From assembly GCA_964465205.1 (NCBI GenBank), contig CAYXJO010000001.1:5099-69098 (forward strand): a stretch of 64,000 nucleotides of DNA, read 5' to 3'. The notes under the pieces were generated by a model. The model had not been told where the DNA came from, made no database searches, and saw only the letters and a program-made list of their open reading frames with translations. Every line of letters begins with the position of its first letter. Position 1 is the first letter of the stretch. This document shows, piece after piece, positions 15,091 through 16,188 of this stretch. The position numbers and the translations under genes are program-made. The DNA is from an uncultured Gammaproteobacteria bacterium. Its GTDB lineage: Bacteria; Patescibacteriota; Patescibacteriia; Magasanikbacterales; GWA2-37-8.

Positions 15091-15162
15091 GTCCTCGTAG
15101 TTTAACGGATAAAATATCTCCCTCCGAAGGAGGTGATCGAGGTTCAATTCCTCGCGAGGGCA
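15091..15162 (+). tRNA. tRNA-Arg (anticodon CCG)
   Basis: Hand-folded. Acceptor GTCCTCG/CGAGGGC (one G-U), anticodon stem TCTCC/GGAGG with loop CTCCGAA, T-arm CGAGG-TTCAATT-CCTCG, discriminator A. Confidence 0.6.
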
Positions 15163-15184
15163 CTATTTGCCAATAAATGCCAAT

Positions 15185-15202
15185 TTTTACCTGCTTATAC
15201 TC
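15185..15202 (+). repeat. Left copy of island-flanking repeat TTTTACCTGCTTATACTC
   Basis: 13-bp core CCTGCTTATACTC recurs in direct orientation at 15870-15882. An 18-bp near-identical inverted copy lies at 15932-15949. Confidence 0.6.
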
Positions 15203-15361
15203 AAAAATACGGCGAATGGTTTGGGGCGAATATATTTTAAGCCAAGGTGATATCTAAAATAAAGTATCAAAAAAGGCCTCGCGCAGTATAATACCACGCG
15301 AGGCCAAGGCCAAAGTCGCCGAGGCGCCAAAAGGTTCAAGCGCCCCAATTTCCAAGGCCCA

Positions 15362-15808
15362 TTACTTGTCGGCGGGGACGAGCCACCGCCAGAGGGCGGG
15401 CAACTCGTCGTTGGCCCAGCCGAAGCCCGAACGGTTGTCTGCGCCCACGCACGGGAAGCGAGCGTCGCCGTTCGAGTCCACCCACGACGGGTCGTCCACA
15501 CCCACGGGGCCCTTGCCGTCGTGGCTGGGGTAGGCGGCCTTGAAGGCCTCCAACCACTGACCCTCGGGCGTGGGGCCGTAGGCCGCCACGAGTTTCCGCT
15601 GCAACTCGGTGTGGTTACGGCAGTAGTCGACCGACACGAGTTTGAACTTGCGGGTTTCGGTGCCCGCGACTGTCTTGCCCGAGTGCTTCCAGCCCTCGAG
15701 GTCGTAGCCATAGTTTTTCACCATGGCCAGGGGGGCGACATTGGAGTCGCTGCCGTCGAGGGTAAGTGAGAATACTTCGCCGATTTCCGGAAAAGGATAA
15801 GGTTTCAT
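15362..15808 (-). CDS. Hypothetical protein (148 aa), GC-rich, likely horizontally acquired
   Basis: Start MKPYPFPE is preceded by RBS AAGGAGAGAGAGG. GC-rich codon usage contrasts with the flanks. No recognisable motif. Confidence 0.6.
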   Translation of the reverse strand: MKPYPFPEIGEVFSLTLDGSDSNVAPLAMVKNYGYDLEGWKHSGKTVAGTETRKFKLVSVDYCRNHTELQRKLVAAYGPTPEGQWLEAFKAAYPSHDGKGPVGVDDPSWVDSNGDARFPCVGADNRSGFGWANDELPALWRWLVPADK

Positions 15809-15869
15809 CGTCCTCTCTCTCCTTTCGTTCGTCGCCTTGGGCGACATTGATAATTTCACACACCATCCG

Positions 15870-15882
15870 CCTGCTTATACTC
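15870..15882 (+). repeat. Right direct-repeat copy CCTGCTTATACTC
   Basis: Exact 13-bp match to 15190-15202. Confidence 0.6.
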
Positions 15883-15931
15883 GCCAAATTATAATTACTG
15901 TTCTGTTGTCTTACGGCTATTATATTTTAGT

Positions 15932-15949
15932 GAGTATAAACAGGTAAAA
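15932..15949 (-). repeat. Inverted copy (GAGTATAAACAGGTAAAA = reverse complement of TTTTACCTGtTTATACTC)
   Basis: 17 of 18 positions match the left repeat, in inverted orientation, about 50 bp outside the right direct repeat. Confidence 0.55.
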
Positions 15950-16188
15950 TAGGCAATTTTTGGCAAAGAACGCTGTCATTGATTTGACGGGATAATATAC
16001 CATATTTGGAGAGAAATGTCAAGCGCAAGGGCGGGTGGGTGGACGATTTATGGGTTTTTCTTGTCTTCAGCCGTTTTTGGTAAAATATGTTCTAGCGAAG
16101 TTGTAAATTTCTACAAGTTGCTAAAATAGCATTGGTTTGGTATTATATTTTAAGTAATAATATTTAATTTATTAAAATATCTAACACT

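Follow-up and report, generated by a model that had tools for sequence, protein, structure and literature searches.

The DNA analysed here is a 64,000-nt stretch of contig CAYXJO010000001.1 (the window, below), and our subject is a small GC-rich gene that lies, bracketed by repeats, just beyond a tRNA gene. The tRNA-Arg(CCG) gene occupies 15091-15163 on the plus strand (ARAGORN; Rfam tRNA model, 60 bits) and follows a FemAB gene, an arrangement conserved in the related loci L020, L022 and L023. The small gene, at 15362-15808 on the minus strand, encodes 148 amino acids and is preceded by a strong ribosome-binding site (RBS), AAAGGAGAGAGAGG. Across 13000-18500, the open reading frames (ORFs) correspond to RNase III, NusB, L32, FemAB, this gene, a cupin, an ADP-ribosylglycohydrolase remnant and GyrA. 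The first-pass annotation had interpreted the locus as a mini-island, resembling the footprint of a site-specific integration beside the tRNA, and its primary observations stand. GC content is 0.66-0.70 over 15300-15700 and 0.475 for the window; an exact 13-bp direct repeat, CCTGCTTATACTC, is found at 15190-15202 and 15870-15882; an inverted third copy is present at 15932-15944 with one mismatch; and neither the segment nor the sequence next to it contains an integrase-like ORF. An independent Logan contig (SRR11845629) matches 15029-15976 at 100% identity, and thus the junctions are not an assembly artefact. We nonetheless favor a different account, to which we assign a probability of about 80%: in a Magasanikbacteria-like genome of the candidate phyla radiation (CPR), the gene is a diversity-generating retroelement (DGR) target that stands alone, inserted in a terminator-like palindrome, and not the cargo of a tRNA-targeting element.

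The identity of the protein is central to this account. Domain searches with the 148-aa sequence returned nothing from Pfam, PHROGs or NCBIfam, and a PDB profile search gave no meaningful match, in keeping with the first-pass description of a cargo without a recognisable domain. Homology and structure prediction nevertheless make it identifiable as a DGR variable protein with a C-type-lectin-like fold, a fold seen in its AlphaFold (AF2) model at a pLDDT of 94. Its closest homologues (41-57% identity, E about 1e-30 to 1e-47) are target proteins in loci L019, L024-L027, L031-L039 and L052, which carry a DGR reverse transcriptase (RT), a template repeat (TR), or both. All of the 26 homologues from a word-indexed search that have a source name belong to Patescibacteria/CPR, and a full profile search extends the family to 515 cluster representatives at E <= 0.001. 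The family is restricted to CPR and absent from Pfam, NCBIfam and PHROGs; no homologue was found in phage, IMG/VR or plasmid collections, and Pfam searches of ten longer members for fused domains gave no match. DGR targets of CPR usually lack recognisable domains (Wu et al. 2018, PMC5758913; Roux et al. 2021, PMC8144416). As modeled, the window protein is probably a small, soluble, cytoplasmic ligand-binding protein of C-type-lectin-like type.

Related loci contain the machinery that such a target would use. Downstream of the target gene in L019, L031, L035 and L039, at a distance of 190-450 nt, its last ~130 nt recur as a non-coding copy, and AAC codons are abundant in these copies exactly at the variable positions of the family alignment. 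L039 combines a target 51% identical to the window protein with a TR and an RT bearing YADD and LGNLTSQ motifs, while L025 has a target 57% identical to it, an RT (RVT_1), a TR and the accessory protein bAvd, which scores 53 bits against PF22296 (cut-off 40) and 77 bits against the NCBIfam model DivGenRetAVD. RT matches occur in 11 family loci and Avd matches in eight. Between TRs and the variable repeats (VRs) of the targets, 180 of 194 mismatches across ten pairs fall at TR adenines, a rate of 0.65 at A compared with ~0.016 at C, G and T, and the TR/VR homology stops at the stop codon. L025 and L027 come from two samples and, over the last 432 nt of the coding sequence (CDS) plus 60 nt of 3' untranslated region (3'UTR), differ at 13 positions, all inside the VR; we take this as evidence of active diversification in nature. 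The DGRs of these loci are working ones, of the kind that Wu et al. 2018 and Roux et al. 2021 described in CPR.

Two further features of the DGR cassettes deserve mention. A conserved, structured-looking leader, reading AGAGAGTAGATTAATA..GCGATCGAAATTCGAGAyTTGT..., lies downstream of a promoter in five loci (L019 ~372-560, L031 ~1383-1600, L035 ~2535-2750, L036 ~4529-4700 and L039 ~4554-4770). It precedes the TR in L019, L031, L035 and L039; no TR was detected in L036. The leader has no Rfam match at the gathering threshold, and it may represent the non-TR part of the DGR RNA. Some cassettes of the family are also found a few hundred bases downstream of 23S-5S rRNA genes (L027 1-87, L035 1-1396, L039 1-3415).

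The window gene retains the architecture of a DGR target at its 3' end. Its VR of 41 codons, SWVDSNGDARFPCVGADNRSGFGWANDELPALWRWLVPADK, spans 15365-15487 on the minus strand and aligns codon for codon and without gaps to the TRs of L019, L032, L037 and L039; a tblastn search with a TR peptide matches 15371-15487. At the AAY positions of the TR, the window codons are mostly NNC. The last ~30 nt of the VR (15365-15394, minus strand) form a GC-rich invariant end, CTCTGGCGGTGGCTCGTCCCCGCCGACAAG, that resembles an initiation of mutagenic homing (IMH) element, and the IMH-like end CTGGCGGTGGCTCGTCCCCGCC is conserved. Beyond the stop codon, family members share a VR-proximal hairpin, in which 77.7% of alignment cells are paired, compared with 37-59% when the partners are slid, and whose covariation score is reached by 2 of 500 shuffles; RNAalifold predicts no consensus structure for the 3'UTR, and the support for this hand-drawn hairpin is moderate. 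In L024 it folds at -12.4 kcal/mol (z = -5.3). The window carries a remnant of it at 15321-15346 on the minus strand (GGGGCGC, the 12-nt loop TTGAACCTTTTG, GCGCCTC). Further on, 57 nt past the stop codon, lies an intrinsic terminator (15275-15305, minus strand) with a 14-bp GC-rich stem, a 3-nt loop and a T6 run. Its DNA fold of -14.9 kcal/mol is well below that of shuffled sequence (z = -6.2), it has homologous counterparts, alike in position and in sequence, among the terminators of the family, and it may double as the DGR target hairpin.

What the window lacks is the rest of the element. When two CPR DGR RTs and an Avd served as tblastn queries against its 64 kb, all matches had E > 0.3, and since the query RTs are 63-68% identical across lineages, an RT copy would not be missed. 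For a TR, a sliding ungapped scan of the window reached at best 52/110, and blastn, tblastn and self-comparison were negative. Among the best 120 of more than 8000 RT homologues, none lies on the 144,454-bp source contig. Because RT, Avd and TR are all missing from the window, its gene copy is either a remote target or an orphan. This is not exceptional within the family: among 18 long loci, defined by at least 4 kb on both sides of the gene, 16 have no RT or TR within the 4-5 kb searched. Some stand-alone copies may still be rewritten, as is suggested by the paralogues L009 and L012 of one Magasanikbacteria metagenome-assembled genome (MAG), whose identity is 93% in mid-gene, falls to 62-71% in the VR and returns to 91-96% across the IMH-like end and 3'UTR. 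For the window copy, we estimate by inference that an orphan no longer diversified is somewhat the likelier state, and a remote target rewritten in trans somewhat the less likely.

The repeats that bracket the gene belong to a single structure. In the window, CCTGCTTATACTC with up to two mismatches has three matches where 0.65 are expected, a count reached by 2 of 100 shuffles. The inverted third copy is part of a longer match of 19 nt with 95% complementarity (15185-15203 / 15931-15949), and a second shared motif in the first-pass annotation is part of a 22-nt inverted repeat (15166-15187 / 15946-15967). A repeat finder reports both pairs along with a third, 15870-15895 / 15919-15944, of 26 nt. 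The sequence 15919-15967 thus pairs partly with 15166-15203 and partly with 15870-15895, and the 13-bp direct repeat is the overlap between the two. When 15166-15202 is joined to 15883-15967, a continuous palindrome results, with 50-bp arms that match at 42 of 50 positions with one indel; this rebuilt 132-nt sequence folds into a single long hairpin (DNA folding energy -27.6 kcal/mol, z = -7.3 versus shuffles). The three repeat copies, the second motif and the 26-nt inverted repeat are therefore one structure, and what had been regarded as an outer att-like site is instead the other arm of a pre-existing palindrome.

Because deletion of 15203-15882 rebuilds a continuous palindrome, a cassette insertion into one arm is indicated, and the simplest reading is that a segment of 667 bp (15203-15869, minus strand) would have entered the left arm with duplication of 13 bp. 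The outer part of that arm remains at 15166-15202 and ends in the first repeat copy; the second copy, at 15870-15882, represents the duplicated target, and the remaining palindrome (15883-15967) comprises the inner left arm (15883-15895), the loop (15896-15918) and the right arm (15919-15967). In gene order, the inserted segment contains a 61-nt leader with the RBS, the CDS, the 3'UTR, the terminator and a 72-nt AT-rich tail. The repeat geometry is thus non-random and consistent with a single insertion, as the first-pass annotation had sensed, while its att-site and tRNA-targeting elements find no support. To judge from the geometry, the insertion looks like a one-off event.

The palindrome itself appears to be native. 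Long AT-rich palindromes also occur in the window at 8448-8520, 9437-9522, 22812-22917 and 34111-34208, and two others, at 22140-22238 and 24754-24851, share 85% identity and directly follow S1-like and FtsH genes. The motif TATATTTTAGTG, found at 15921-15932 in the right arm, recurs in the palindromes at 22.1, 24.8 and 34.2 kb and has five copies in the window against 0.37 expected. Because similar palindromes and this motif recur, the tRNA-Arg palindrome is a host feature of a terminator-like class. The repeats are not of a dispersed kind such as repetitive extragenic palindromic (REP) sequences or miniature inverted-repeat transposable elements (MITEs), as the 13-mer (up to two mismatches) and the arm sequence (up to three) have no further copies in the 64 kb. 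In L059, direct and inverted copies of TGTCATTGCGAGC / GGCGAAGCAATCCA at 3692-3720 and 4570-4873 flank the family gene and resemble a dispersed palindromic repeat of that genome.

Taken together, these features suggest the following course of events. In related genomes, the target lies beside an RT, bAvd and a TR, and the TR RNA is reverse-transcribed with errors opposite adenines. The resulting cDNA overwrites the VR, with homology ending at the GC-rich invariant 3' end at the stop codon, followed by a hairpin. The window copy still has the codon architecture of a VR and the IMH-like end, together with a proximal hairpin that is weakened and a terminator hairpin that is strong. A 667-bp piece (leader, CDS, 3'UTR and terminator) would have been inserted in the left arm of a pre-existing AT-rich, terminator-like palindrome 3' of tRNA-Arg, with 13 bp duplicated. 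Host promoters to the right of the insert would drive transcription. Two candidates directed at the gene lie there on the minus strand: a promoter-like TTTACC-18-TATAAT (15919-15948; 10/12 positions) within the right arm, and, outside the palindrome, a near-consensus TTGACA-17-TATATT with an extended TG (15994-16022; 11/12 positions).

Several results weigh against this account. DGR action on the window copy is unproven, with no TR or RT visible, and a statement in Wu et al. 2018 (PMC5758913) speaks against the remote-target branch. The VR-proximal hairpin of the window folds no better than shuffled sequence (-5.9 kcal/mol, z = -0.7); it has lost the outer GGAAYC/GGTTCC stem of its relatives and kept a 7-bp inner stem. 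On the side of the insertion, no flanking repeat of at least 13 bp was found in any of 36 other family loci tested, and hence no general insertion mechanism can be made out. The comparison with relatives also gave a divided result: the interval between tRNA-Arg and gyrA is indeed variable among them, but no true empty site was recovered from the nearest ones (FemAB identity 55-65%).

These relatives keep FemAB-tRNA-Arg(CCG) and gyrA with differing genes between. In L020, the closest, the interval holds two unrelated orphan ORFs (1202-1552 and 1718-2152, minus strand) of 116 aa and of 144 aa (with several Cys), neither with a Pfam match, and in L022 a lactamase-fold gene. None of the relatives compared has the window gene or the palindrome in this interval, which is thus a variable spot, occupied by different small genes in each lineage. 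In the window, it also contains, between the cupin gene and gyrA, the GC-rich ADP-ribosylglycohydrolase remnant, an ORF of 81 aa (16671-16916, plus strand) that matches only the last 41 positions (246-286 of 287) of the profile PF03747. Across the family, genomic context is not shared: 17 family loci have no conserved neighbours, Rfam finds only the tRNA at the window locus and only rRNA on ten related loci, and a few family loci follow 5S rRNA. About 3 of 45 distinct loci lie within ~500 bp of a tRNA, so the tRNA adjacency of the window gene looks incidental. Between the paralogues of a pair, sequence sharing is confined to the promoter or leader, the CDS and the 3'UTR, terminator included.

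The high GC content of the gene is a family trait. In the window, GC content at third codon positions (GC3) is 0.84 in the target gene and 0.37-0.55 in those for FemAB, the cupin, GyrA, RNase III, NusB and L32. About 45 of 52 family loci show the same contrast, with gene GC of at least 0.58, GC3 of 0.7-0.9 and flanks of 0.39-0.53, and a few diverged members are at host composition. The genes adjoining the targets are AT-rich: RT genes have a GC of 0.34-0.38 and a GC3 of 0.33-0.42 in seven loci, with L036 as the exception among the eight (0.48 and 0.57), and Avd genes likewise are AT-rich. Since the GC excess belongs to the family, the contrast is no evidence of recent import. It extends to targets unrelated to the family in Colwell-, Azam-, Harrison- and Moranbacteria (L060-L063), whose GC is 0.50-0.60 and GC3 0.51-0.81 compared with a GC of 0.30-0.39 in their own RT and Avd genes, and in which TR/VR mismatches fall at TR adenines in 13/13, 11/11, 12/12 and 20/20 cases, respectively. 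GC-richness is thus an intrinsic property of CPR DGR target genes; we found no paper in the literature reporting a GC contrast between targets and RT/Avd.

Three candidate causes were tried and rejected. Translational selection for high GC3 is at odds with the accessory nature of the window's other high-GC3 genes (SPFH, NAD salvage), which are not of the highly expressed kind, and with the ordinary GC3 of L32 and GyrA, adenine-specific depletion with equally low A3 and T3, and a conversion-tract gradient from the VR with a GC3 that is flat along the domain. As for those other genes, the most extreme compositional outlier of the window encodes an SPFH/Band 7 protein of 623 aa (9803-11674, minus strand; GC 0.63, GC3 0.91) and lies ~400 bp from tRNA-Arg(TCG) (12082-12154) and tRNA-Lys (12265-12338). 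A GC-rich block at 47728-59295 (GC3 0.63-0.82) comprises an NAD-salvage set (NadE-like, radical SAM, NAPRTase, NMNAT-NAD kinase fusion and isochorismatase) and two ORFs without a Pfam match (56523-57389 and 57445-59295); a similarity of 58% over 571 nt links 58584-59154 with 55554-56124.

The mini-island interpretation requires that a site-specific recombinase placed a circular cassette into an att site by tRNA-Arg, with the 13-bp repeats as attL/attR cores, and that the island then decayed or was mobilised in trans. The exact bracketing of the cassette by the direct repeat speaks for it, as does the variability of the tRNA flank in relatives, and other GC-rich genes of the window also lie near tRNAs, the SPFH gene among them. 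We nevertheless consider it improbable. The segment has no integrase-like ORF in or beside it, and the direct repeat is no part of the tRNA: the tRNA ends at 15163, and the repeat begins 27 nt past it, inside the palindrome arm. The family is not tRNA-associated, the other family loci tested have no flanking repeats of comparable length, phage, IMG/VR and plasmid collections have yielded no family member, and the GC contrast, being a family trait, lends no weight. A chimera of assembly or binning, in which GC-rich foreign DNA was placed in an AT-rich contig, could account for the sharp compositional step, and we give it next to no credence: the Logan contig spans both junctions at full identity, and the same type of GC-rich gene is found inside AT-rich contigs in dozens of independent assemblies.

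The remaining alternatives concern how the gene came to its place or how it behaves there. A retro-copy is conceivable, in which an RT would have copied a read-through transcript of the target and inserted it by target-primed reverse transcription at the hairpin-forming site, leaving the 13 bp as a target-site duplication. DGR RTs are abundant in these lineages, the insert is without a promoter of its own and ends in a U/T run in the gene sense, and the homology of the L009 and L012 paralogues runs roughly from leader to terminator. The insert, however, continues for 72 nt beyond the terminator, the paralogue pairs L001/L013 and L007/L011 also share promoter sequence, target-site duplications are not seen at other family loci tested, and DGR retrohoming is not known to make new loci, which together make this origin very improbable. 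Still less probable is an invertible segment, in which the imperfect ~38-bp inverted repeats at 15166-15203 / 15931-15967 would flip the gene relative to the promoter at 16022-15994 and produce phase variation. Inverted repeats do lie on both sides of the gene, the strongest promoter is just outside the right arm, and the Logan contig stops 9 bp past that arm; that contig, though, crosses the left arm without a break, no invertase is nearby, other family loci lack such inverted repeats, and inversion leaves both the internal third copy and the continuity of the palindrome over 15202|15883 unexplained.

A stand-alone DGR target in a split palindrome thus remains our preferred explanation, and it turns a hypothetical protein on an apparent mini-island into a testable DGR target in a CPR genome. 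Roux et al. 2021 (PMC8144416) state a limit of their own survey, namely that it starts from the RT and seeks TR/VR pairs nearby. Large RT-anchored surveys cannot see RT-less copies like the window gene, yet 16 of 18 long family contigs have no RT nearby. The analysis also cautions that a GC contrast alone is no sign of recent horizontal transfer in these genomes, and it offers a possible search heuristic, as such targets may be recognisable as small GC-rich genes whose C-terminus is rich in NNC and whose 3'UTR is conserved. The insertion scar provides one concrete junction to look for in reads. More speculatively, and in our view unlikely, CPR targets may be held at high GC (GC3 0.7-0.9) by a target-specific process while RT and Avd, at a distance of a few hundred bases, keep the composition of the host, with most family copies standing alone far from an RT. 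If both were true, an orphan gene of high GC in an AT-rich CPR genome would generally signal a hidden DGR target, possibly one diversified in trans, and the locus would keep the scar of a cassette colonising a new site via a hairpin-forming terminator. Two points most merit further study: the high GC of CPR DGR targets, for which we have no explanation, and the frequency of copies that lack an RT.

Comparison with known systems places the locus more precisely. It shares with tRNA-flanking islets and phage 'morons' a lone accessory gene that has a terminator of its own, a contrast in composition, bracketing direct repeats and an adjacent tRNA, and differs from them in the lack of a recombinase and of phage or plasmid homologues, in a direct repeat that is not tRNA-derived, and in a contrast that is a family trait. 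Mtd (1YU0) and TvpA (2Y3C), structurally characterised DGR variable proteins, have a C-type lectin fold and no detectable sequence similarity to the window protein, which at 148 aa and with a single domain is much smaller. For BPP-1, Guo et al. 2011 (PMC3240598) showed that what turns a sequence into a DGR recipient is an IMH with a hairpin downstream. The family resembles that target site in its GC-rich invariant VR end followed by inverted repeats past the TR/VR homology, with conserved stem pairing and some covariation, and by analogy the CPR hairpins could act like BPP-1 recipient elements. The family hairpin has a two-tier stem and a loop of ~11 nt, whereas BPP-1-type phage elements have a stem of 7-10 bp and a 4-nt GRNA loop (PMC3240598). 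A close likeness is to the CPR-restricted, cell-encoded 'clade 2' DGRs (PMC8144416), or 'CPR set' (PMC5758913). The window copy departs from these in having no RT, Avd or TR in 64 kb, in its degenerate VR-proximal hairpin, and in its position in a split palindrome with a 13-bp duplication. The gene is nonetheless homologous to their targets that adjoin RT, bAvd and TR, and, in common with CPR targets, its product is small, has a VR at the extreme C-terminus that ends at the stop codon, and contains neither a recognisable Pfam domain nor a transmembrane segment.

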